Below are positions 3,451 to 58,774 of a stretch of 64,000 nucleotides of DNA, one piece after another; the first letter of the stretch is position 1; each line of letters begins with the position of its first letter. The notes beneath the pieces were generated by a model. It did no database searches and had not been told where the DNA came from. It saw nothing but the letters and a program-made list of their open reading frames with translations. The position numbers and the translations under genes are program-made. The DNA is from Syntrophales bacterium (lineage in GTDB: Bacteria > Desulfobacterota > Syntrophia > Syntrophales > PHBD01), in the NCBI GenBank assembly GCA_963668175.1, contig OY764159.1, positions 416,001-480,000 of the forward strand. The letters run 5' to 3'.

Positions 3451-4859
3451 GGTCGGATACCGGAACCGTGATATTTCAGTACCAGCATCGTTATATCATC
3501 GGCCTGGTAAGCGCCGTCAGCAAAGATATCGACCTCGGACTTTACGGCGCTCATGACATTTTCAGCCTTTTCGCCCGCAGAGCGGGCAAGCACGCCCTCG
3601 AGTCTGGCTTCTCCAAAGAGTTCGTTGCTGCGGTTCATGGCTTCCGTGACACCGTCCGTATAGAGGACCACCGTCTCGCCGGGTCGAATCGTCAAGGAAT
3701 CCGATATATAAGGTGCATCTTCCATTATGCCCAACGCCAAGCCGTTCCCTCCCGAGATGGGTTCCAGAACGCCCCCGCTCCGGCAAAGATAGGGGAGATT
3801 GTGTCCTGCGTTTGTATACCGCAACTCGCCGCTGCGGATGTTCAGAATACCGAGAAAGAGCGTAACAAACATGGATGCTTCGTTTTCCTGAGCCAATTCT
3901 TTGTTGACGCGTTCCAGAATGCGCTCCGGGCTCAGCTCGGAACCGGCATGGGTTCTGAGCAGCATCCTGGTGCTGGCCATGAACATGGCCGCGGGTGCAC
4001 CCTTTCCGGCGACGTCACCAATGACGATATAGAATTGATCCGGACCGACGAAGAAGAAGTCATAGAGATCGCCGCCTACTTCCCGCGCCGGTTGCAGCAT
4101 CGCCCAGACATCGAATTCCTTGATGTCCGGAAACGGCGGGAAGGTCCTGGGAATCAGGGAAAGCTGGATATCCCGTGCGAGATTCAACTCCCCCTCCATC
4201 CGCTCCTTCTCGGCCTGGTTTCGCTGTTCTTCGACCAGCTTGTTGATTAGAAAAATGAAAAGGCCGACGGCTATACCATGACCGATGACGGTGGGCAGCG
4301 CCACCGATTTCTGGATGGCAAGGGCCTTTTCGAAATCCGGAGACGTGGCAAGAGAAATGCCGCGAGCGGCTATTTCATAAATAACGGTAAAAATGACAGC
4401 TTCCGGCGTTCGCGGCGCCCTGCCCCGTTGATACATGTAATAAAGGCCCGCCAGAAGTCCGGGCAAGAAGGTGATGATCGTCGAAGGAATGACCTGTTGC
4501 CCGCCGATGCAGTACCGATAAATGCCCATGACGATTCCGGTCCCGATGCCGACGACCGGTCCGGCCACCAATCCCCCTACAATCTGCCCCGTATGGGTTA
4601 AAGCCAGGAGACCTCCGGCGACCGGGACGCGGTTCATGATGCCGTATATCGAGAAGGAGGAGAAGATGGCGATGAGAAGCAGATTGATCGAGAATCGCCT
4701 TTTCGTGTTCAGTATATGCGTATAAAAAGGAGAGTATACAAGGATAAAGGCCACAACGGCGGTGACGCAGGCGACGTTTAAGACATTGATGAGCAACTCA
4801 TCCACGGTAATCCACTCCTCGAAGTCATTGCTTGCAGGCCTTGCCAATGCCTGGGACAT
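3447..4859 (-). CDS. LytS/YhcK-type 5TM sensor fused to a SpoIIE/RsbU PP2C phosphatase
   Basis: Hydrophobic N-terminus with GLVAGPVVG; C-terminal VGGDLYD, IGDVAGKG, YTDGVTEA and DDIT motifs. Confidence 0.88.
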   Translation of the reverse strand: MSQALARPASNDFEEWITVDELLINVLNVACVTAVVAFILVYSPFYTHILNTKRRFSINLLLIAIFSSFSIYGIMNRVPVAGGLLALTHTGQIVGGLVAGPVVGIGTGIVMGIYRYCIGGQQVIPSTIITFLPGLLAGLYYMYQRGRAPRTPEAVIFTVIYEIAARGISLATSPDFEKALAIQKSVALPTVIGHGIAVGLFIFLINKLVEEQRNQAEKERMEGELNLARDIQLSLIPRTFPPFPDIKEFDVWAMLQPAREVGGDLYDFFFVGPDQFYIVIGDVAGKGAPAAMFMASTRMLLRTHAGSELSPERILERVNKELAQENEASMFVTLFLGILNIRSGELRYTNAGHNLPYLCRSGGVLEPISGGNGLALGIMEDAPYISDSLTIRPGETVVLYTDGVTEAMNRSNELFGEARLEGVLARSAGEKAENVMSAVKSEVDIFADGAYQADDITMLVLKYHGSGIRP

Positions 4860-5163
4860 AGCAAATGCATGATGTTATGTCCATATAAACCATGCTGATT
4901 GATGAACTTTTCGCTGAACGAATCATATCGTCGTCGCACCAGTCGCAGGCGCTTTCGCCGCTTCGAACGAGTCAAATTCCCAAATGACAAAAGACGCATG
5001 TACTCCGGCGAATGACGGATATTATCTTTAAGACTTCAAAAAGACAAATATTCCTTTCTTTCCAGGCTGTACATTCTGGTGAATATAATGTGATTATGCT
5101 AGATATTACGATGATGGAAAGTTAGCGTCACAATATCTGTATGTATGACCATGAGGCATCATC

Positions 5164-7758
5164 ATGAAAGAAGACGCCCTGACCACTGTTCAATGTGGGT
5201 CTGAAACGAATAAGCTGAATGAGGAGATCGCCCGGCTAAAAAGATCGGAAGCCGATCTCAGGCAATCCGTAACGGCTTTAAAAAGAAGCGAGCAATACTT
5301 TCGGGCGATTACGCAGAATGCCTCCGATATCATCATCATTGTCGACAGAAAAGCCGCTATCACCTACGTCAATCCTTCCATAGAACGCCAACTCGGCTAC
5401 AAGCCGGACGAACTGATCGGACGGAGCGGATTCGATTTCATCTCGCTGGCTGATATCCCCAGGGCCATCTACGATTTTGGACGAGCCATTCTGACAAGGG
5501 AGACGGTTATACCCAATGCCTTTGCGGTCAAACACCGGGACGGATCGGAACGCATTTTGGAGGGCGTGGGGACCAATCTGCTTCGCGATCCCGTGGTTAA
5601 GGGATTTGTTATGAACGTCCGGGATGTAACGGAAAGAAAGAAGGCAGAGGACGAACTGCGCTTATACCGTAAACACCTGGAAGCGGTCGTCGAAGAGAGG
5701 ACGTCCGAACTGGCCCAAACCAATTCGCAGTTGGTTGCTGAACTGGGCGAGCGGCGCAGCATGGCAGAGGCCTTAAAGGAAAGCCAAGAAAAATACAGGA
5801 ATTTGCTGGAGGATGCACCTATCGGCTTCTGTATCGTTGATCCGTTGGGTTACATTCAATACGTTAATCGGCGATTGGAGGAAGAGACTGGCTGGCTGAG
5901 GGGGGAACTGATCGGCAGGAGCTGTTTTTCCCTCGGACTCTTTGACGAAGCAACCGGGCGCAGACTTTTGGAACGCCTGACAGCCCGTCTGAAGGGCGAT
6001 GCCCACCAGAACACGGAGATACCCGTTGTTTCCAGAAAAGGGAAAAAGTTATGGGTCGAAGTGAAAGGTACGATGCTGAGAAAAGACGGCATGATCTCCG
6101 GCATTCAGCTTGCCTTCACCGATGTTACGGAACAGCGATTGGCCGCCGAAGCTCTAAGACGGAGCGAAGAGAAATACCGCAACATCTTCGTGAACGCCGT
6201 CGAAGGCATCTATCAATGCAATCCTGAAGGACTTTTCATAACCGTCAATCCCGCCATGGCCAGAATCTGCGGGTATGACAGTCCGAAGGAAATGATCGAA
6301 GGCATACAAGATATCTCAACGCAGTTCTGCATAAAACCTGAAGATTGGAAAGGGTTTAAACGGACCATTGAGAAAAATGGACGTGCCGAGAACTCCGAAT
6401 ACCAGATCCGGAAGAAAGATGGGGGTGCCTTATGGGTATCCGTCAACGGCCGTTGCATCCGGGATGATGCGGGCGGTATCCTCTATTATGAAGGAAGCAT
6501 AGACGACATCAGCAAACGCAAAGAAGCGGAAGCGGCACTCAGGACGGCGGAGGAAAACTATCGGAATATTTTTGAGAACGCGTCGGAAGGCATCTATCAG
6601 AGCACACCGGAAGGCCGATACATTGAAGCTAATCCCGCTTTCGCCCGGATGCTCGGTTACGATTCACCGGCGGATCTCAAAACGTCGATCACGGATATTG
6701 CCAAACAGGTTTACGAAAATCCGCAAAAACGCGAAGAGAGTATGCTCGTGTTCACGGATAGGGACACGGCGAATTTCGAAATCAGAATACGGAGAAGAGA
6801 CGGCTATTTTGCCTGGATTCTCAACAGCGTCCGAGCCATTCGAGACGACAGGGGAGTCATAAGTCGGTTCGAGGGCGTGGTACAGGATATTACCGGGCGA
6901 AAAAAAATCGAAGCCGCACTTCGGGAAAGCGAGAAGAAATACAGAGACCTTGCAGAAATGCTCCCTCAGACCGTCATTGAGACAGACGAAACGCTACTGG
7001 TCACTTTTGCCAACAATTTTGCAATGACTGCCACCGGCTATACCGAGGAGGATATCAAACAAGGGATTAATTTATTTGATATTATCCGTGAGAAGGATCA
7101 GTCGAAGATCATGGAAAGCATAGACGAGTCCCCCGATTATGAGGGACATCCGTTCGGTGCTGAATGCACAGCCCTGAGAAAGGATGGCAGCACTTTTCCG
7201 ATGATCGCTTATACGAGCCCGATCACCCGGGACGGGAGATTTGCGGGACTGCGGGGTATTTTCATCGACATCACGGAACGGAAACGAATCGAAACGGCAT
7301 TACGGAAACGGGAACGGGAGTTCAAGAACCAATCCGGACGGCTTACGGAAATGAATATGGCGCTAAAAGTCTTGCTCAAGAATCAGGATGCGGAGAAGAA
7401 GGAGCATGAAGAGAAGATATTGACCAACGTCAGGGAATTGGTCGTGCCTTACATAGATAAATTGAAGAATTCGCGTTTAAACGCTCAACAGTCGACCTAT
7501 ATCGATATTGTGGAAGCCAACCTCAACACCATCATATCCTCTTTTTTACGCAACCTCACATCGAGATATTTGAATTTAACGCGTCGGGAAATCGAGTTGG
7601 CCTATCTGATCAAAGAGGGAAAAACAACCAAAGAGATATCGGAATTATTAAACTTATCGTCAAGAACGATCGACAGCCACAGAAATCGAATCAGGAAAAA
7701 ACTGGGATTATCCAATAGAAAGATCAACCTTAAGTCCTACCTACTATCTCTCATTTAA
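5164..7758 (+). CDS. Multi-PAS (about 5 PAS/PAC) LuxR-family transcriptional regulator
   Basis: Repeated PAS/PAC signatures (..DVTERK, ..DITGRK, ..DITERK); C-terminal LTRREIE...GKTTKEISELLNLSSRTIDSHRNRIRKKLG HTH. Confidence 0.9.
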   Translation: MKEDALTTVQCGSETNKLNEEIARLKRSEADLRQSVTALKRSEQYFRAITQNASDIIIIVDRKAAITYVNPSIERQLGYKPDELIGRSGFDFISLADIPRAIYDFGRAILTRETVIPNAFAVKHRDGSERILEGVGTNLLRDPVVKGFVMNVRDVTERKKAEDELRLYRKHLEAVVEERTSELAQTNSQLVAELGERRSMAEALKESQEKYRNLLEDAPIGFCIVDPLGYIQYVNRRLEEETGWLRGELIGRSCFSLGLFDEATGRRLLERLTARLKGDAHQNTEIPVVSRKGKKLWVEVKGTMLRKDGMISGIQLAFTDVTEQRLAAEALRRSEEKYRNIFVNAVEGIYQCNPEGLFITVNPAMARICGYDSPKEMIEGIQDISTQFCIKPEDWKGFKRTIEKNGRAENSEYQIRKKDGGALWVSVNGRCIRDDAGGILYYEGSIDDISKRKEAEAALRTAEENYRNIFENASEGIYQSTPEGRYIEANPAFARMLGYDSPADLKTSITDIAKQVYENPQKREESMLVFTDRDTANFEIRIRRRDGYFAWILNSVRAIRDDRGVISRFEGVVQDITGRKKIEAALRESEKKYRDLAEMLPQTVIETDETLLVTFANNFAMTATGYTEEDIKQGINLFDIIREKDQSKIMESIDESPDYEGHPFGAECTALRKDGSTFPMIAYTSPITRDGRFAGLRGIFIDITERKRIETALRKREREFKNQSGRLTEMNMALKVLLKNQDAEKKEHEEKILTNVRELVVPYIDKLKNSRLNAQQSTYIDIVEANLNTIISSFLRNLTSRYLNLTRREIELAYLIKEGKTTKEISELLNLSSRTIDSHRNRIRKKLGLSNRKINLKSYLLSLI

Positions 7759-20057: not shown

Positions 20058-20232
20058 CTCTTCCTGAATCGCGGCGCACCTCCTTTCCCGTCGTCTATTG
20101 CCGTTTTGAATATAGATTTTTTTTTCACAATGCACAATATCAAATAAGGTGTTGCAGCTCTAGTCCCGCTTGATTATTTCCATGTTTCGTATATATTGAT
20201 TATTATTATCGTTGCAACCCCAGGAAGGCATA

Positions 20233-21393
20233 ATGAACACAGCCGGCCCTAAGAAGGACAAGCCGCTTGACGAATTGGAGGTGCTGATCAGGCGTACTAT
20301 CCACGCCGAAAAGGCAGAGATCGAACGCTTGCGGCTCGAGAATTATCTCAAGGAAAGCGAAGAACGGCTGAGAACCCAATATCGCTTTATTCCCATCCCG
20401 ACGGTGACCTGGCAGAAGAGAAAAGACGATTTTTACCTGGTGGATTACAATATCGCGGAGGAGGAATCGACCGACGGACTGGTTAAAAGCCTGGTCGGAA
20501 AGCCGGCCGCAGAGATTCATCATGATCGGCCCGACATCGTTGCCGATCTGGCCCGTTCTTATCATGAACGTACGGTTGTAAAGCGGGAGAGCCCATATCG
20601 TCTCGTGACGAAAGGATTGGACAAGTTCATTTCCTTCACTTTCGCCTATGCCCCCCCCGATCTCGTCCTCTGCCACATGGAAGACGTCACCCCGCGCAAG
20701 ACGGCCGAAGAAAAATTGCGTAAATCGGAACGGGAACTTAAAGCCCTTTCATCCAAGCTCATGAAGGTGGAAGAAAAAGAGCGGAAGCGGATCGCCAGGG
20801 AGCTCCACGACAGCATCGGACAGTATCTGACGGCCATCAAGTTCAACGCGGAAAATATTCTCACCCGGCTCAAGCTGAAAGACGAAACTACGGCCATCGA
20901 AACACTCACCGCAGGCATTCCGCTCATCCAGCAGACGATCGAAGAGGTCCGGCGGATCATGATGGACCTGCGGCCGACCATCCTGGACGACCTTGGCATC
21001 ATCGCTACGATCTCCTGGTTTTGCAGGGAGTTTCAGGCTGTCTATAATCATGTCCGCCTGGAAAAGCAGATACTGCTCGAAGAGACGCAGGTGCCCGAAC
21101 CGCTTAAAATTATTATATACAGAATCATGCAGGAGGCGATGAACAACGCGGCCAAATACAGCGGGGCCGGCCTGATCAGGATCAGGTTGAAACAGGAAAA
21201 ACTAAGGATAGAATTCGCCATCATGGACAACGGCATCGGCTTCAACGCCGGACGAAGGCATAAGGGGCTGGGCCTTATCAGCATGAGGGAACGCATCGAA
21301 GGATCCGGCGGCAGCATGACGGTTCGGACCAACGCCGGGAAGGGCACTGTCATCCGGGCATCCTGGCCGGCGAACGTCAGGTCCGATTCGTGA
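20233..21393 (+). CDS. Soluble PAS + HisKA_3 sensor histidine kinase
   Basis: ERKRIARELHDSIGQ, QEAMNNAAKYS, DNGIGF and GLGLISMRER motifs; no TM segment; RBS AGGAAGG before ATG 20233. Confidence 0.9.
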   Translation: MNTAGPKKDKPLDELEVLIRRTIHAEKAEIERLRLENYLKESEERLRTQYRFIPIPTVTWQKRKDDFYLVDYNIAEEESTDGLVKSLVGKPAAEIHHDRPDIVADLARSYHERTVVKRESPYRLVTKGLDKFISFTFAYAPPDLVLCHMEDVTPRKTAEEKLRKSERELKALSSKLMKVEEKERKRIARELHDSIGQYLTAIKFNAENILTRLKLKDETTAIETLTAGIPLIQQTIEEVRRIMMDLRPTILDDLGIIATISWFCREFQAVYNHVRLEKQILLEETQVPEPLKIIIYRIMQEAMNNAAKYSGAGLIRIRLKQEKLRIEFAIMDNGIGFNAGRRHKGLGLISMRERIEGSGGSMTVRTNAGKGTVIRASWPANVRSDS

Positions 21394-22054
21394 GGAGGCC
21401 CTTCTCCATGGCATAGGCGGTCAGGGCGGAAGCGCTGTGAAGATCCAGCTTCTTCATCAGATGGTCACGATGCTTCTCCACCGTTTTTAAACTGATGCAA
21501 AGATAGTCGGCAATTTCCCGATTTTTGTACCCTTCGGCCACCAATTTGAGAATCTCCCTTTCCCGACTAGTCAAAGAATCCCAGGAAGTTCCGGCCTTCA
21601 CGCCTTTCCTGCCGGCCAGATAACCCTCGATAACCTTTTCGGAAACGGCGGGGCTGAGATAACGTTTGCCAGCAAGGACGTTTTGCACGGCCAGAATGAG
21701 TTCCGCATGGGTGGCGTCCTTCAGGACATAGCCGTCGGCACCGGCTTCGAGGCTTGCGCGGACATATTCCTCCGTTTTGTGGACTGTGAGTACGAGTACT
21801 TTCGTGGCGGGAGACAGCCTCTTGACTTCCCTGATGGCTTCCATCCCGTTCATTCTGGGCATGGAAAGGTCCATCAACATGAGATCGGGGGTTAATTGCC
21901 GGGCATAGCGAATGGCCTCGCGGCCGTCTTCGGCCTCACCGACAACGAGCAGTTCCGGATGGGAAGAGAGCAGCGCCCGCAGGCCCTCCCGAACAATCGT
22001 GTGGTCTTCGACGATGACAATCCTTTTGGATGGATTCGAAGCCTGGTCGTCCAT
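21377..22054 (-). CDS. NarL/LuxR-family response regulator
   Basis: VEDH, MDLSMP, GYVLKDA and LTSREREILKLVAEGYKNREIA motifs. Confidence 0.93.
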   Translation of the reverse strand: MDDQASNPSKRIVIVEDHTIVREGLRALLSSHPELLVVGEAEDGREAIRYARQLTPDLMLMDLSMPRMNGMEAIREVKRLSPATKVLVLTVHKTEEYVRASLEAGADGYVLKDATHAELILAVQNVLAGKRYLSPAVSEKVIEGYLAGRKGVKAGTSWDSLTSREREILKLVAEGYKNREIADYLCISLKTVEKHRDHLMKKLDLHSASALTAYAMEKGLLTNRT

Positions 22055-22217
22055 AGTCCCTGCCGACGAATGATCAACCGTATCAAGCCAACCCGGTGAA
22101 CGCCCTATTGTCTATCACGCCTTGGCAGATGAGTAAAGGAAGATCCTCCGGCTGATCTGATCCAAAACTTTTATGACGAACGATCTTTCCGCCTTTTGAT
22201 CGCAGCAAATAAAAAGC

Positions 22218-22246
22218 TTGCTTTTTTCTTTTCATTCATATAGGCA
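22218..22246 (+). promoter_or_regulatory. Candidate sigma70 promoter of the leader-ior-TRAP transcript
   Basis: TTGCTT-N17-TAGGCA about 30 nt upstream of the leader ORF. Confidence 0.45.
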
Positions 22247-22276
22247 CAAGTTAAAATATAACTAACGGTATTCATC

Positions 22277-22363
22277 ATGTTTTTTAAGAACACGATAAAG
22301 ATGACAAGCTGGTGGTGGCGCAGCGTACATATGGGGAGGTGCGGACTGGACTGCTGCCGTTAA
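22277..22363 (+). CDS. Tryptophan leader peptide (MFFKNTIKMTSWWWRSVHMGRCGLDCCR; alternative start at 22301)
   Basis: Three tandem TGG codons at 22310-22318 (SWWWR) in a short ORF ending 23 nt before a terminator hairpin. Confidence 0.85.
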   Translation: MFFKNTIKMTSWWWRSVHMGRCGLDCCR

Positions 22364-22386
22364 ATACACGATAAAGAGACGCTTAG

Positions 22387-22423
22387 AAGCCGCGGGCAGT
22401 TAACAGCTCCCGCGGCTTTTTTT
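22387..22423 (+). terminator. Attenuator terminator (3:4 hairpin)
   Basis: Stem AAGCCGCGGG / CCCGCGGCTT followed by a T7 tract, ending 23 nt before the iorA ATG. Confidence 0.9.
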
Positions 22424-22446
22424 ATTCATCCAGGAGAATTGAGGTC

Positions 22447-24282
22447 ATGAACACAGAAGGAGAAAGAATTTTGATGGGCAATGAAGCCATTGGCCGGGGG
22501 CTTCTCGAAAACGGCTGCGGTCTTGTAGCCTCCTATCCGGGTACGCCGGCGTCGGAAATTCTGGCGTCGGCCGTCGACTTTGCCGGGGAGACCAAAACCC
22601 CGATCCATCTCGAATGGTCCGTCAACGAAAAGGTGGCCTTCGAAGTCGCTCTGGCATACAGCTATACGGGGAAACGAGCGGCCGTAGCCATGAAGCAGGT
22701 CGGATTGAATGTGGCATCCGATCCGGTCACGCGTGCCGCCTATCTGGGCACCAAAGGGGGGCTCGTGCTCGTTGTGGCGGACGATCCGGGCCCGCACAGC
22801 TCGCAGACCGAGCAGGACAGCCGCCTGTTTGCCCTTTTCGCGAAAATACCGGTTTTCGATCCCGCCAGTCCGAAAGAGGCAGGCGAGATGGTCAGGGAAG
22901 CCTTCGCCTTATCGGAACGATACGAGATACCCGTCATGCTCCGGCCGACGACACGGGTATGCCACGCCCGTCAAAACGTGCCCTGTACAGCGCCTGAGGC
23001 GTCCAAAAAGAGTGCACGATTCGAGAAAAATGTCAGCCGCTGGGTGGCCACGCCACAATTTCTCCAAACCCTCCATCGCGAACTGAACGAAAAACTCGAT
23101 GCCATCGGAGGCGATACCCTCTTTTATCCGCATCATATCCCGGGGGACGGAACATCGGCCAACGGCTGCATCGTGGCATCGGGCGTTGCCTACGCCCATG
23201 CATTCGATATTATGAATGATATGAGGTTAATCGGCAAGGTCGATCTCTATCAGGTCCGCATGCCCTATCCTCTAAATAAAGCGTTCATTGGCGACGTCCT
23301 GTCACGTTACGAAAAGGTTCTCGTCCTGGAAGAAACCGACGCGGTCATAGAGCTTCAACTGGGCGACCGCAGGATAACGGGCCGGCTATCGGGCCATGTT
23401 CCCCGCCAGGGCGAACTGACGCCGGACGTTGTCGAAGACATCCTGCGCGCTTTTCTTGAGATGCCCGCCGCCGCGGCAGCACCGCAGCCGAAGGCCAAGG
23501 GCAGACGGCCGTCGCTGTGCGCGGGCTGCGGCCATCGGGCGGCTTTCTATGCGATAAAGGAGACATTCCCCGACGGTATCTTCCCCAGCGACATCGGCTG
23601 TTACACCCTGGGCATGAATTTCGGAGCCGTCGATACGTGCCACTGCATGGGGGCCTGCATCAGCCAAGGCGCAGGATTTTATCGCGCTTTTGCACAGGAT
23701 GGCCTCACGATCCCCACGACCGTCGTCACGATCGGCGATTCTACATTCTTCCACGCCGGCATCCCCGGCCTGATCAACGCGGTCATTCAGAGGGCAAGAT
23801 TTATTCTGGTGATCCTCGATAATGGAACGACCGCCATGACGGGTCACCAGCCGACGCCGCAGTCCGGGCGGATGGCCGACGGCCGTCCCGGCAAGCAGGT
23901 CATGATCCCGGAACTGCTCAAGGCCTGCGGTATCGAATTCTTGAAGGAATGTGATGCTTACGATGTCGATCTCCTGAAGGAAAACCTTCGGGACGCCGAC
24001 CGGTTCACTCGCAGCGAGAAGGGCGGTGTCGCCGTCATCATCGCGCGGCATCCCTGTATCGTCGGCAAGGCCGCCAAGAAGGGCCAGCCGGTTTACACGA
24101 TGAGCATCACCGACGACTGTATGGCCTGCAGGGCCTGCATCGATCATTTTGAATGCCCGGCCATCGCCTTCGATGAAGAACAGGAGAAGGCGGTCATCGA
24201 TCAGAATTTCTGTATCGGCTGCGGCGTCTGCCGGCACGTCTGTCCGGTGGAGGCCATTGTGGCGGAAGGAGGAGTCCAGTGA
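22447..24282 (+). CDS. iorA: Indolepyruvate:ferredoxin oxidoreductase alpha subunit
   Basis: MGNEAIGRG, YPGTPASE, WSVNEKVAFE, MKQVGLNVASD, SSQTEQDSR, LCAGCGHR, DIGCYTLG; TPP motif GDSTFFHAG...DN; C-terminal 2x[4Fe-4S] ferredoxin domain. Confidence 0.95.
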   Translation: MNTEGERILMGNEAIGRGLLENGCGLVASYPGTPASEILASAVDFAGETKTPIHLEWSVNEKVAFEVALAYSYTGKRAAVAMKQVGLNVASDPVTRAAYLGTKGGLVLVVADDPGPHSSQTEQDSRLFALFAKIPVFDPASPKEAGEMVREAFALSERYEIPVMLRPTTRVCHARQNVPCTAPEASKKSARFEKNVSRWVATPQFLQTLHRELNEKLDAIGGDTLFYPHHIPGDGTSANGCIVASGVAYAHAFDIMNDMRLIGKVDLYQVRMPYPLNKAFIGDVLSRYEKVLVLEETDAVIELQLGDRRITGRLSGHVPRQGELTPDVVEDILRAFLEMPAAAAAPQPKAKGRRPSLCAGCGHRAAFYAIKETFPDGIFPSDIGCYTLGMNFGAVDTCHCMGACISQGAGFYRAFAQDGLTIPTTVVTIGDSTFFHAGIPGLINAVIQRARFILVILDNGTTAMTGHQPTPQSGRMADGRPGKQVMIPELLKACGIEFLKECDAYDVDLLKENLRDADRFTRSEKGGVAVIIARHPCIVGKAAKKGQPVYTMSITDDCMACRACIDHFECPAIAFDEEQEKAVIDQNFCIGCGVCRHVCPVEAIVAEGGVQ

Positions 24283-24791
24283 ATCAACAGATCGTTATCA
24301 GCGGTATCGGAGGCCAGGGTGTCCTTTTTCTGACCCGGATTATTGCGGAAGCAGCCATGGAAAAAGGGTTGCCCGTCCTGACGTCGGAAACGCACGGCAT
24401 GGCCATGCGAGGCGGCACGGTCATTTCACATGTAAAGATCGGTCCTTTTCACAGTCCTCTCATTCGCGCCGCCCAGGCTGATATCGGTTTCTTTCTCAAT
24501 GAAGCCAACCTGGACGTTCACCGGGGTTTCCTGAAGCCGGAAGGGCTGCTGTTCATCAATACACCGAAGCCGGGAGACTACCTGCACGTGGACGCCACGC
24601 GGATTGCCAAGGAAAACGGTTTCCTGGTCATCACGAATTTGGTCCTTCTCGGATTCGCCGTAAGCAGGGGCGGCCTCTTCTGCGATGCCGGCCTCGCGGA
24701 GAACGTTATCCGCAAGCTTTCTCCGGACAACCAGGTCGAATCCAACCTGCGGGGTTTTTCCCTGGGGGTTGCCGCAGGAAAAACCAATTAG
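24279..24791 (+). CDS. iorB: Indolepyruvate:ferredoxin oxidoreductase beta subunit
   Basis: GIGGQG and SETHGMAMRGG motifs; GTGA overlap with iorA. Confidence 0.92.
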   Translation: MNQQIVISGIGGQGVLFLTRIIAEAAMEKGLPVLTSETHGMAMRGGTVISHVKIGPFHSPLIRAAQADIGFFLNEANLDVHRGFLKPEGLLFINTPKPGDYLHVDATRIAKENGFLVITNLVLLGFAVSRGGLFCDAGLAENVIRKLSPDNQVESNLRGFSLGVAAGKTN

Positions 24792-24825
24792 AAATGGTCT
24801 ACGAAGAACCGACTGGAGGTCACAT

Positions 24826-25854
24826 ATGAAGGCATTGAGAATCATAAGCGGTATCTTGCTGGCCGTCATCTTTCTGTTTATCGCGGCTCCCTCTCCGTCG
24901 TCAGCCGCGGGCCCCATCAAGCTCACCTATGCAAACTTTCCCCCGGCACCGACGTTTCCCTGCGTCCAGATGGAACGCTGGGCCCGGGAAGCGGAAAAGC
25001 GCACGAACGGCCAGGTCAAGATCCAGACATTTCCGGGCGGGACGCTGCTGCCGGCCAAGAATATTTTTGACGGCGTCATTGCCGGCACCGCCGATATCGG
25101 CAACTTTGCCATGAGCTATCAGCCGGGACGTTTTCCCGTGTCGGAAGCCGTCGATCTGCCGCTCGGATTTGCAAGCGCCCGCGTAGCGAGTCTCGTTCTC
25201 TATGACATAATTGAAAAATACAGACCGAAGGAATTCGAAAAGGTCAAGGTCCTGACCGTCTTCACCTGCCCGCCGGCCGACCTGATGACAAGCAAACCGG
25301 TCAGAACCCTTGCAGATTTAAAGGGCATGGAACTTCGCTCGTCGGGCACCGGCGTCGAGGTGATCAAGGCCTTGGGCGGCATACCCATCGCCATGCCCCA
25401 GTCGGACACGCCTGAGGCGATCCAGAAGGGCATCGTCAAGGGCGTTGTTTCTTCCCTCGAAGTTTTGAAGGACCTGAATTACGCAGCTTACACCCCTTAT
25501 GCGACCGATGCCAACCTCTTCGTCGTCACCTTTGCGGTGGTCATGAACCGGGACAAATGGAATGCGCTGCCCGCCGACGTCAAAAAGACACTGGAGGCCC
25601 TGGGAAGGGAGCAGGCCGAATGGACGGGCAAATATGTCGACGGCCATGTCAAGGAAGCCCTCGCCTGGTCCAAACAGAAATACAACCACCAGCTCCTGCA
25701 GCTTTCAGCGAAAGACAAGGCGGAAATAGCTGCCCGTGTCAAGCCGATGATCGACGGCTACATCAAGAGGGTCAACGGCCAGGGGATACAAGGCGCACAA
25801 ATCATAGCCGATATCCAGTCTCTGAAACGCAAATACGAAAAAACGTCCCGATAG
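24826..25854 (+). CDS. dctP: TRAP transporter solute-binding protein (DctP family)
   Basis: Signal peptide; TNGQVKIQTFPGGTL, YQPGRFP and DLKGMELR (conserved carboxylate-binding Arg); GGAGGT RBS before ATG 24826. Confidence 0.92.
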   Translation: MKALRIISGILLAVIFLFIAAPSPSSAAGPIKLTYANFPPAPTFPCVQMERWAREAEKRTNGQVKIQTFPGGTLLPAKNIFDGVIAGTADIGNFAMSYQPGRFPVSEAVDLPLGFASARVASLVLYDIIEKYRPKEFEKVKVLTVFTCPPADLMTSKPVRTLADLKGMELRSSGTGVEVIKALGGIPIAMPQSDTPEAIQKGIVKGVVSSLEVLKDLNYAAYTPYATDANLFVVTFAVVMNRDKWNALPADVKKTLEALGREQAEWTGKYVDGHVKEALAWSKQKYNHQLLQLSAKDKAEIAARVKPMIDGYIKRVNGQGIQGAQIIADIQSLKRKYEKTSR

Positions 25855-25887
25855 CCAGCAAACGGAATCACCGGCAAGGAAAACATT

Positions 25888-26445
25888 ATGCATATTCTCG
25901 AAAGAATCAATTTGTACCTTAACCGTTATCTGCTCATGATCGGCGGCATCGCCGTCCTGGCCCTCATGGCCCTGGCCACGGGAAACGTCGTCCTTCGCCT
26001 TTTCCAAATGCCTTACGCGGGAACCTATGAATTCGTGTCGTTTCTCGGTGCGATCGTCACGGCTTCGGCCCTCGGCTATACGCAACTGAAAGGGGACCAC
26101 ATCATCGTCGATATCCTGTCGGATCACTTTCCCGGACCGCTGAAGAGCATCGCCGACGCCCTCTCCTCCTTTATCAGCGCCATTTTCTTCACCATCGTGT
26201 CCTGGCAGATGTTTGTCTGGGGCATGAAGCTCGCGGAATCGGGAGAGCTTTCCGAAACGCTCAAGGTGGTCTATCACCCCTATGTGTACTGCGTCGCGGT
26301 GGGTTTTGCCACACTGTCCCTAACTTGTGCGATCGACGTCATGGCCATATTGCGGAAACGCGCTCAGGTGCCCGCCGGTACAGAATCAGCGATACAGCAA
26401 TCCGGTTTGGGCTTCAGTGAAAGCCCCAGGGAGGAACGGTCATGA
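25888..26445 (+). CDS. dctQ: TRAP transporter small permease
   Basis: About 4 TM segments and the HIIVDI motif; lies between dctP and dctM. Confidence 0.9.
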   Translation: MHILERINLYLNRYLLMIGGIAVLALMALATGNVVLRLFQMPYAGTYEFVSFLGAIVTASALGYTQLKGDHIIVDILSDHFPGPLKSIADALSSFISAIFFTIVSWQMFVWGMKLAESGELSETLKVVYHPYVYCVAVGFATLSLTCAIDVMAILRKRAQVPAGTESAIQQSGLGFSESPREERS

Positions 26446-27749
26446 GCGAATCCATGGTAGGCGTTATCGGCATCCTGGTCATGTTTGCCACCTTGTTTTT
26501 CCTGAGGATACCGGCCGGCTTTACCATGGCCGTCGTCGGCTTTTTCGGAATTGCCTACGTGACATCCTTCCAGGCCGCCTTCGGCATGATCGGCTCCGAG
26601 ATGTGGAGTATCTTCTCCAACTACGGCCTGACGGTTATTCCGATGTTCATTCTGGTCGGCGAAATCGTGCATTACGCCGGCTACAATGACAGCCTCTATC
26701 ATGCCACCCACCGGTGGTTCGGACATTTCCGCGGGGGCCTGGCCATTACGACGATCATGGCTTCGGCGGCGTTTTCCGCCATCAGCGGCTCCAACACGGC
26801 CACGGCGGCAACCATGAGCAAAGTGGCCATCCCGGCCATGAAGAAATACAACTACCACCCCATCCTGAATGCAGGTTCCGTTGCTGCAGGAGCCACGCTG
26901 GGCGTTCTGATCCCGCCCAGTATCGTCCTCGTCGTTTACGGCCTCTATACGGGGCAGTCCATCGGCAAGCTATTCTTCGGCAACGTCATCCCCAGCGCAA
27001 TTCTCACCGTTTTGATTGCTGCGACCGTCTTTGCCATTTGCGCCCGTCATCCCGATTGGGGACCGGCAGCGGAGAAAAGCACCTGGAAGGAAAGGTTCAA
27101 GGCCCTCCCGGAAGCACTGGACATATTAGTCCTTTTTATCATTATCATGTATGCCCTCTTTACGGGCGTCGTTACGGCGACGGAAGCGGCAGCCCTCAGC
27201 TGCACCCTGGCGCTGATCATCAGCCTGGCCCGCCGGAAGCTCACCTGGGCGGCCTTTCTGTCGTCCATCGAAGATACACTTCGCATCTCCTGCCTGATCT
27301 TCATGATTATCGCCGGGGCCGTTATCTTCGGAAGATTTTTGACGATATCCCGTCTGCCTTATGAGGTCGCATCCTGGATCGGGTCCCTGGCCATGCCCAA
27401 CTGGCTGCTTCTGTCCGTCATCCTCTGCTGCTACATCGTCGGCGGCTGCATCATGGACGCCCTTGCTTTTCTCCTCATATCCCTGCCCATATTCTATCCG
27501 ATCGTGATCGGTATGGGGTACGACCCGATCTGGTTCGGACAGATCATCACGATTGTTACGACCATGGGCTCCATCATGCCGCCCATTGGAATATGCTGCT
27601 ATGTCGTCCACGGCATGGCAAAGGACATTCCCCTGGCCACCGTCTTTCGCGGCGGGTTCTACTACATCCCGTCCTACATCATCGCCATCATCCTGTTGAT
27701 GCTTTCGCCCTATTGGACGGTCTTGGTTTTGTCGGACCTGGTTAAATAG
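26442..27749 (+). CDS. dctM: TRAP transporter large permease
   Basis: IPMFIL, FSAISGS, LGVLIPPSI, DPIWFG and PPIG motifs. Confidence 0.93.
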   Translation: MSESMVGVIGILVMFATLFFLRIPAGFTMAVVGFFGIAYVTSFQAAFGMIGSEMWSIFSNYGLTVIPMFILVGEIVHYAGYNDSLYHATHRWFGHFRGGLAITTIMASAAFSAISGSNTATAATMSKVAIPAMKKYNYHPILNAGSVAAGATLGVLIPPSIVLVVYGLYTGQSIGKLFFGNVIPSAILTVLIAATVFAICARHPDWGPAAEKSTWKERFKALPEALDILVLFIIIMYALFTGVVTATEAAALSCTLALIISLARRKLTWAAFLSSIEDTLRISCLIFMIIAGAVIFGRFLTISRLPYEVASWIGSLAMPNWLLLSVILCCYIVGGCIMDALAFLLISLPIFYPIVIGMGYDPIWFGQIITIVTTMGSIMPPIGICCYVVHGMAKDIPLATVFRGGFYYIPSYIIAIILLMLSPYWTVLVLSDLVK

Positions 27750-27847
27750 ATCACGTGACGCGCCGACCGACATATAAGGGTTGATCCATTATCGCTTATT
27801 TGATACATGATTGTATCATTGAGTCATTTTCAACTCGAAGGACGGCC

Positions 27848-28192
27848 ATGAACGATCTACTGGAAAGCCGGGATGAAGAGATTGTGGGCGATATGCACCG
27901 GGCGGCGCAGACGATTGTGGAATTCACGGTAGGCGTCAGTTTCGAGCAGTTTATCAGCGACCGGAAACTGCAATTTGCCCTGGAGAGGTTGATCGACATC
28001 ATCGGGCAGGATGCCGTGAATGTATCGGAGGCTTTTCGCAGCCACTATGCCGATATATCCTGGCAGACGTTGATGACGCTCCGTCACGTTCTGGCCATGG
28101 AGGATGGGGCCAAGCAGGAACGCATGTGGGATCTCGTCTCCGTGCAGATACCGGAACTCGCGGCAGAACTGGAATCATTGGCGCCTTACTGA
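27848..28192 (+). CDS. DUF86/HepT-like HEPN protein with a degenerate active-site motif
   Basis: Family-like segments FALERLIDIIG and ISW...LR...MW..V...IPEL; the Rx4H motif reads RHVLAM. Confidence 0.7.
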   Translation: MNDLLESRDEEIVGDMHRAAQTIVEFTVGVSFEQFISDRKLQFALERLIDIIGQDAVNVSEAFRSHYADISWQTLMTLRHVLAMEDGAKQERMWDLVSVQIPELAAELESLAPY

Positions 28193-57592: not shown

Positions 57593-58774
57593 TTAATTGA
57601 AAAGCCCCGTTTTCTCAAAATCGTCGATGTCCGCATCCGGATAGCCGAGATGCCGGAGGACTTCCCGTGTATGGGCCCCGGGAGGCGCGCCGATGGATTT
57701 GTACTGCATTTCCGTTTCGGAGAATTTGATCGGACTGGCGATCTGACGGACGGTCCCTACGCCGGGAACAGCGAGTTCGACCACCATCTGCCTGCCTTCG
57801 ACCAAGGGATCGGCGAGTGCTTCAGCCAGCGTGAGCACCGGCTCCACGCAGGCGTCCACCTTTTCGAATATCGCCGTCCATTCGTCCCTCGTTTTCGTCT
57901 TGAAAATTTGCCGGACTTCGGCCTTCACCTTGTCGATGTGGGGGGGCGACACGGTCCCGGCGATCAAATCGGGACGGCCGATGCCTTCGCAGAAGACCTT
58001 GAAGAAATGGGGCTCCAGGGAGCCGACGCTCATATATTTACCGTCCTTCGTTTCATAGTAATCGTAAAAAGAGCCGCCGTTTAGGAGCCATTCGCACTGG
58101 CCGGGGTCCCTTCCACCAACCAGGAACGAGGCGCCGACCATGGCATTGAAGGCGATGGCGCCGTCCGTCATGGAAATATCGATATTTTGGCCTTCCCCCG
58201 TACTGGCGCGGTGGTTGGCCGCGGCGAGTATGCCGATGACCGCGTGATTCGATCCGGAAGCCACATCCGCGATCTGCATCCCCATCAGCATGGGGCCCGA
58301 TTCCTTGGTCCCCGAATAGGCGATCATACCGGAACGGGCCAGATAGTTGATATCATGCCCCGCTCTGTCCCGGAAGGGGCCGGTCTGCCCGTAACCGGAG
58401 ATGGAACAGTAGATAAGCGACGGATTGATTTTCCTGAGGCTTTCGTAATCGAGCCCCAGTTTGGCCATGACCCCGGGACGGAACTGTTCGATGACAATGT
58501 CGTAGTCGGCCAGCAGTTGATGAACGATGCGGATTCCCCTTGGATCTTTAAGGTTCAGGGCCATGCAGCGCTTGTTCCTCCCCAGAAATGCCGATATCGC
58601 GGCAATCTTCGTCTTGGGGAGAAACGGGGGAATGAAAGCCGTTAAATCGGGACGCGATCCGGAAACGACGCGCAAGACATCGGCCCCCATATCCGCCAGG
58701 AGCATTGTAGCGTAAGGACCGGGCAAAAGAGTTGTGAAATCCAAAACCTTCAAATTCTTCAGCGGACCTGCCAT
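57593..58774 (-). CDS. CaiB/BaiF class III CoA-transferase / alpha-methylacyl-CoA racemase-like protein
   Basis: LLPGPYAT, GRNKR, EQFRPGV, SGYGQTGP and AGHDINY motifs. Confidence 0.92.
   Translation of the reverse strand: MAGPLKNLKVLDFTTLLPGPYATMLLADMGADVLRVVSGSRPDLTAFIPPFLPKTKIAAISAFLGRNKRCMALNLKDPRGIRIVHQLLADYDIVIEQFRPGVMAKLGLDYESLRKINPSLIYCSISGYGQTGPFRDRAGHDINYLARSGMIAYSGTKESGPMLMGMQIADVASGSNHAVIGILAAANHRASTGEGQNIDISMTDGAIAFNAMVGASFLVGGRDPGQCEWLLNGGSFYDYYETKDGKYMSVGSLEPHFFKVFCEGIGRPDLIAGTVSPPHIDKVKAEVRQIFKTKTRDEWTAIFEKVDACVEPVLTLAEALADPLVEGRQMVVELAVPGVGTVRQIASPIKFSETEMQYKSIGAPPGAHTREVLRHLGYPDADIDDFEKTGLFN

Follow-up and report, generated by a model that had tools for sequence, protein, structure and literature searches.

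A tryptophan-codon leader and intrinsic terminator upstream of an iorAB-TRAP operon in Syntrophales, a candidate attenuator for indole-acid salvage

The tnaC leader system relies on one critical tryptophan (Trp) and on Rho-dependent termination, lacks an intrinsic terminator and is induced by excess Trp. Indolepyruvate:ferredoxin oxidoreductase (Ior) enzymes are generally broad arylpyruvate enzymes, and oxidative decarboxylation is their textbook direction in fermenters. For Methanococcus maripaludis, the parts of PMC4162585 and PMC3462420 that treat the subject document an Ior-dependent route by which aryl acids give aromatic amino acids, and this agrees with the anabolic Ior that a preliminary description of the DNA analyzed here had named for methanogens. 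[quoted passage not shown] Indole acids are among the new TRAP ligands in a review (PMC5812351). The DNA examined here is a stretch of 64,000 nucleotides from a Syntrophales bacterium (contig OY764159.1 of assembly GCA_963668175.1, positions 416,001 to 480,000), called the window throughout. It contains a short leader ORF (open reading frame) with tandem Trp codons, followed by an intrinsic terminator and by genes for both subunits of an Ior and all three components of a TRAP transporter. A full-text literature search found neither ior nor this TRAP system described with a Trp attenuator, in agreement with the preliminary description, which knew of none for an ior-TRAP operon; the original Dde_0634 structure paper, which may discuss genomic context, was beyond the reach of the search.

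The leader and the operon that follows it consist of these features.

22277-22363, + strand: leader peptide ORF of 28 codons, translated from the window as MFFKNTIKMTSWWWRSVHMGRCGLDCCR and followed by the stop codon
22385-22423, + strand: intrinsic terminator (3:4), a GC-rich hairpin at 22385-22420 (-24.3 kcal/mol) with T7 at 22417-22423
22447-24282, + strand: iorA, Ior alpha-like subunit of 611 amino acids with POR_N, TPP_enzyme_C and 2x4Fe-4S (Fer4) domains
24279-24791, + strand: iorB, beta-like subunit of 170 amino acids with a POR domain (PF01558)
24826-25854, + strand: dctP, solute-binding protein of the TRAP transporter, by sequence of the Dde_0634 (indole-acid) type (PF03480)
25888-26445, + strand: dctQ, TRAP small permease (PF04290)
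26442-27749, + strand: dctM, TRAP large permease (PF06808; TIGR00786 at 276.9 bits, above cut-off)

The three tandem TGG codons of the leader are at 22310-22318, and the terminator hairpin starts 22 bases past the leader stop codon, ahead of iorA. The operon junctions are tight: iorA and iorB, like dctQ and dctM, overlap by 4 nt, and the other genes are about 33-34 nt apart. The preliminary description had reported this arrangement of leader, terminator and tight five-gene operon, and it is correct in every particular; the absence of a trp biosynthesis gene that it noted for the operon extends to the rest of the 64-kb window. The leader holds the sole TGGTGGTGG (TGG) run of the window, an occurrence that is not significant alone because 0.35 are expected and at least one appears in 25 of 100 shuffles.

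Conservation of the leader was examined at other iorAB loci, as the preliminary description had proposed when it suggested a search for poly-Trp leaders and terminators upstream of orthologous iorA-TRAP genes. An IorA search of genome contigs gave 80 loci, the best 70% identical and mostly from metagenome-assembled genomes (MAGs) of Syntrophaceae, Syntrophales or Smithella. The five operon proteins of the window were compared with the 80 loci by tblastn for TRAP linkage, and a locus was counted as readable if it held the N-terminus of iorA with 120 nt or more of DNA upstream (76 of 80; L009, L015, L019 and L031 fail, L015 with just 28 nt upstream). In L001, L002, L003, L004, L005, L015, L017 and L024 the same TRAP genes come immediately downstream of iorAB, with DctP identities of 56-83%. 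They also lie downstream, on the opposite strand, in L016, and L020 and L021 gave merely an unrelated DctP-like match of 26-27% identity. The readable TRAP-linked loci thus number eight of 76 (L001, L002, L003, L004, L005, L016, L017 and L024). A leader ORF of 20-35 codons and a terminator are present in all eight, at IorA identities of 64-70%, and among the other 68 readable iorA loci there is no convincing leader and no small upstream ORF with three consecutive Trp codons.

The leader alignment comprises ten sequences, namely the window, the eight TRAP-linked ior leaders and a second copy in L016. Nine of the ten encode WWW or WWWW, 10-11 codons past the ATG; the leader of L003 has W-C-W-Q-W, 16 codons past it. 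Trp is the sole run of regulatory codons common to all ten. The terminators of the related loci range from -13.9 to -25.7 kcal/mol with T6-T9 and lie 32-67 nt before iorA (259 nt in L016). Every related-locus leader is preceded, at the same position, by an A-rich tract and TTGCAT, TTGATT or TTGACT, as read by eye. Two putative promoters precede the leader of the window.

22210-22257, + strand: promoter-like region, an A-tract followed by TTGCTT at 22218-22223
22229-22257, + strand: alternative candidate promoter TTTTCA-17-TAAAAT from a consensus scan

A quick IQ-TREE run on 72 IorA rows, with 9 partial rows dropped, places the TRAP-linked genes in three groups within one well-supported 29-row clade of Thermodesulfobacteriota-type IorA.

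Several candidate leaders and attenuators at other loci were rejected. Of the 68 non-TRAP loci, 17 have small ORFs upstream with WW or with three or more scattered Trp codons, and none of these ORFs has three consecutive Trp codons. Among the other TGGTGGTGG runs in 40 loci, the 16 sites inspected were either out of frame in longer coding regions, as in the L-V-V-V stretches of permease-like genes, or GC-rich with no terminator following. The small ORF upstream of iorA in L022 lies inside a DUF559-like coding region. The hairpin-and-T5 sites upstream of iorA in L012 and L028 are a poly-C/poly-G palindrome that also occurs in L007, L009 and L022. This palindrome, of the cccccctttagaaaagggggg type, lies about 30-90 nt upstream of iorA in these five non-TRAP loci, next to where a DUF559-like ORF ends, and has the look of a repeated or mobile element, not of a leader. 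In L077, from a Succinivibrio MAG, the region from -356 to -155 of iorA contains a 34-codon ORF with four scattered Trp codons, then a -17 kcal/mol hairpin and T6; this may be a leader or just the last part of the gene before it. Genes that look by sequence like branched-chain-amino-acid-type ATP-binding cassette permeases (hydrophobic, L-V-V-V) lie about 0.9-1.5 kb downstream of iorB in L006, L010, L014, L019 and other non-TRAP loci. Because such genes follow iorAB in these relatives, iorAB would seem to be habitually linked to an importer of some kind.

The split locus L016, from a Smithella MAG, separates the two halves of the operon. Its dctPQM genes run on the opposite strand from 12674 down to 9835 and are preceded by their own promoter-like box, their own WWWW leader MKLQNSISTNWWWWHKITGRGLFTA and their own terminator. 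The iorAB genes of L016 keep a separate WWWW leader MKRQNRILTNWWWWCKIPGRGLFTA with a terminator. Because each half has its own leader and terminator, ior and TRAP appear to be independently tied to the Trp signal, and this is the strongest single argument that both serve Trp supply and neither is a passenger. The stretch of about 260 nt between the ior terminator and iorA in L016 (5734-5995) holds an ccccctccaaaggggg palindrome and is possibly an insertion.

The RNA of the window leader can form two further pairings that, with the terminator, give the three helices of an attenuator.

22310-22359, + strand: 1:2 hairpin (anti-antiterminator), the Trp-codon segment 22310-22327 with region 2 at 22340-22359, -18.2 kcal/mol
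22344-22401, + strand: candidate antiterminator (2:3) between 22344-22357 and 22389-22401 (5' arm and loop of the terminator), -11.8 kcal/mol

Region 2 ends near the leader stop codon. In all ten leaders region 2 pairs with a segment that overlaps or lies just upstream of the Trp codons, at -11.2 to -27.9 kcal/mol, and the position of this 1:2 helix varies among the subgroups. In the terminator helix all 110 of 110 alignment cells are paired and six of 11 pairs show compensatory changes, compared with 27-58% of cells paired in slid controls. The antiterminator helix falls in identical alignment columns in the ten leaders and three of its pairs are compensatory, with both sides changed; 86.4% of its cells are paired against 22-46% in slid controls, a difference inflated by the derivation of the helix from the tested sequences. 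Shuffling of region 2 gave fractions of 0.000-0.27, and the combined Fisher values of 4e-7 (9 sequences) and 5e-6 (7 less-related sequences) are generous because the sequences are related. The leader and terminator that the preliminary description read from one sequence recur across the alignment, with the terminator and antiterminator helices in conserved columns with compensatory changes, and on ior and TRAP separately in L016; the comparison that it proposed supports its reading. A consensus terminator scanner did not list the leader terminator because its loop and stem limits were exceeded, and the fold and the alignment both show the terminator. Within the operon the same scan gave three matches, below shuffled expectation (3 versus 6.3). 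The only leader match in an Rfam scan, Phe_leader at 18.4 bits, is under the 55-bit gathering score and was set aside as a sub-threshold chance match. A covariance model built from the leaders recovered only its 10 training copies and partial terminator-like matches in 905,494 bases.

The proteins of the operon form complete sets. IorA has POR_N, thiamine pyrophosphate-binding and two [4Fe-4S] domains and IorB has POR, and the P, Q and M components of the TRAP transporter are encoded together. The dctP start is most likely ATG 24826 and not 24685, because GGAGG precedes it and a signal peptide follows. The best NCBIfam models are TIGR03336 (IOR_alpha) for IorA, at 629.1 bits against a cut-off of 650.9, and NF004916 for IorB, at 184.8 bits against 227. 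The best solved matches of the window DctP are 4n6d (E 1e-114) and the Dde_0634 structures 4pgn/4pgp and 4nap (E 6e-96), and the next best has E 6e-33. The alignment with Dde_0634 (4pgn) spans residues 76-384, the whole mature protein, and the Arg in GMELRSSG, predicted to bind the carboxylate, aligns with GMEIRGAG. Because DctP matches 4n6d and Dde_0634 far better than any other solved protein, the window transporter belongs by sequence to the one subfamily known to bind indolic acids, and an indolic acid is its predicted ligand. The import of indole-3-acetate or indole-3-pyruvate suggested in the preliminary description is therefore backed by the closeness of DctP to a protein solved with those ligands, and it is not singled out by this likeness in that Dde_0634 was also solved with D-Trp. 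An AlphaFold2 model of DctP from the single sequence (predicted local distance difference test score, pLDDT, 37) was of too low a quality to be used.

Coenzyme A (CoA) ligase genes of the PaaK type lie beside the leader in several relatives. In L016 one of them stops 74 nt short of the ior leader, and another PaaK-like gene, together with an ACT-pair gene, is upstream of the TRAP leader. The C-terminus of the ligase found at the L016 ior leader also precedes the leader promoter in L004 and L005, and L002 has a PaaK-like gene nearby. In L017 the divergent neighbor of the leader is a family III CoA-transferase (4493-5677, - strand), and a homologous family member is found in the window 30 kb away (57593-58774, - strand). 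It is speculative that a family III CoA-transferase could replace the PaaK ligase in indole-3-acetate activation.

These features are probably best explained by a classical Trp-starvation attenuator that drives the uptake of an indole acid and its reductive carboxylation by Ior towards Trp. How the leader is built, how far it is conserved and that it is linked to ior as well as to TRAP are computed from the alignments and loci above; we infer the response to Trp, the ligand and the enzymes of CoA activation and transamination, and the direction of Ior is deduced from the regulation only. The leader would act as a ribosome-mediated attenuator of transcription whose signal is charged tRNA-Trp. 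With ample Trp, the ribosome would pass WWW and reach the leader stop codon, region 2 would be either masked or in a helix with region 1, and the 3:4 terminator would form, ending transcription before iorA. When Trp-tRNA is scarce, the ribosome would stall at the three TGG codons, cover region 1 and break the 1:2 pairing. The freed region 2 would then pair with the terminator 5' arm, and RNA polymerase would read into iorAB-dctPQM. The TRAP transporter would import an indolic acid, most likely indole-3-acetate, and an enzyme encoded elsewhere, perhaps the PaaK-type ligase in some relatives, would activate it with CoA. IorAB in the reductive direction would convert indoleacetyl-CoA, CO2 and reduced ferredoxin to indole-3-pyruvate, which a general aminotransferase would convert to Trp.

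A number of observations weigh against this attenuator and salvage route. The antiterminator of the window is weak: its shuffle fraction is 0.27 and it reaches -11.8 kcal/mol, versus -24.3 kcal/mol for the terminator. Equilibrium folds always keep the terminator, and the inflation of the antiterminator score adds to this. The leader sequences are related, coming from three IorA subgroups inside one clade. Trp_leader (RF00513) had no match in the leader region when Rfam was scanned at E up to 10. The window leader has no clear Shine-Dalgarno sequence, the candidate being weak, whereas AAGGA or GAGGA is found at other loci. The operon encodes neither a CoA ligase nor an aminotransferase, and there is no AMP-binding ligase in the whole window. 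Because IorA and IorB fall just under the NCBIfam equivalog cut-offs, the family of the enzyme is clear but its equivalog assignment is not, so its substrate specificity is not assured. Finally, the binding of D-Trp by Dde_0634 means that the transporter might carry Trp itself.

The last three of these points feed the alternative that survives best, although it is an unlikely one. The attenuator would be real, but the TRAP transporter would import L- or D-Trp or indole-3-pyruvate, for which a racemase or transaminase would be needed at most, with Ior not on the route to Trp; or else the operon would serve the general salvage of aryl acids, phenylacetate and 4-hydroxyphenylacetate included, and be merely gated by Trp. 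The breadth of Ior enzymes also fits this alternative, as does the crystallization of Dde_0634 with D-Trp and indole-3-pyruvate besides indole-3-acetate (PMC10443332, Table S1). Against an idle Ior, the iorAB genes of L016 have a Trp leader of their own, so Ior itself is wanted at Trp shortage, and an oxidative Ior would destroy imported indolepyruvate. The restriction of the regulatory codon runs to Trp in all ten leaders also speaks against this alternative. It is far less probable that the leader follows the catabolic logic of tnaC, in which excess Trp would induce the uptake and oxidation of indolic compounds for energy. Syntrophs do ferment organic acids, and oxidation is the usual direction of Ior in fermenters, but a leader with Trp codons in tandem runs of three or four, with its intrinsic terminator and 1:2/2:3/3:4 layout, has the starvation-sensing design, and tnaC has its single critical Trp and Rho-dependent termination. 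Moreover, arrest of the ribosome at the leader stop codon would leave region 2 covered, which would favor termination over read-through. Least credible of all is a chance ORF before an ordinary terminator or regulatory hairpin with no Trp link, which the weak Shine-Dalgarno sequence and the insignificance of one TGGTGGTGG per 64 kb would allow but which is excluded by the conservation of the leader in every readable TRAP-linked locus and the second L016 copy, with its Trp run at a fixed distance from the ATG, and by its absence from the other 68 readable iorAB loci.

Starvation control of ior and TRAP thus stands as the preferred explanation, and it bears on the physiology of these genes. Regulation reports when a cell wants a product, and a Trp-codon attenuator on ior and a TRAP importer would say that the genes serve Trp supply and not catabolism. 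An enzyme family that annotation usually treats as catabolic would gain a physiological direction open to test, and indole-acid-binding TRAP proteins found by structural genomics a possible function. Syntrophales, and a type of operon that is not biosynthetic, would join the known range of leader-peptide attenuation. More tentatively, and with slightly less confidence than doubt, the leader copies may define a Trp-starvation-induced regulon of Syntrophales in which ior and a TRAP importer convert indole-3-acetate to Trp by ferredoxin-driven reductive carboxylation. Some lineages might depend on this indole-acid route instead of a full trp pathway. It points to cross-feeding from indole-3-acetate to Trp in methanogenic and sediment communities, where Trp is the costliest amino acid to make de novo. 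If true, this would prove from regulation, for the first time, that an Ior of bacteria is anabolic in vivo, it would assign a physiological role to the indole-acid TRAP family for a compound that is both a fermentation end-product and an auxin, and it would link Trp fermenters to energy-limited syntrophs. What we rate as new is that a familiar kind of regulatory device stands before a class of target new to it, and that known proteins in turn gain a direction and a purpose.

A HisKA_3 histidine kinase gene (20212-21393, + strand) and a LuxR-type response regulator gene (21377-22054, - strand) are convergent, with 3' ends that overlap by 17 nt, and the regulator gene is divergent from the leader promoter. 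This pair is probably outside the system because the upstream neighbor changes in every related locus. An ORF for a HepT-like RNase (HepT/MNT toxin, PF01934, E 2e-11) lies 51 nt past dctM (27800-28192, + strand). It has no obvious MNT partner between dctM and the ORF and is not conserved in related loci.

Four described systems come closest to the locus. The proposed use of IorAB resembles the aryl-acid route of M. maripaludis, where an IorAB-type enzyme is proposed to act reductively from aryl-acetyl-CoA to arylpyruvate (PMC4162585, PMC3462420), but that system is archaeal and the parts of these reports that concern it describe no Trp-codon leader or dedicated TRAP importer. The window DctP is like Dde_0634 over the whole mature protein, and its ligand would be of the same kind. 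Like tnaC-tnaAB, the locus places a Trp-containing leader peptide upstream of genes for indole or Trp metabolism and transport; unlike tnaC, it has tandem Trp codons, an intrinsic terminator and an antiterminator. The leader would work like trpL of Escherichia coli (RF00513), which shares the short ORF with tandem Trp codons, the 1:2, 2:3 and 3:4 pairings and the intrinsic terminator before the first structural gene. The window-type leaders differ from trpL in having 3-4 Trp codons instead of 2 and in not matching RF00513 in sequence, and they occur in a Syntrophales-type Thermodesulfobacteriota lineage where their targets are an oxidoreductase and a transporter and not the trp biosynthesis genes.

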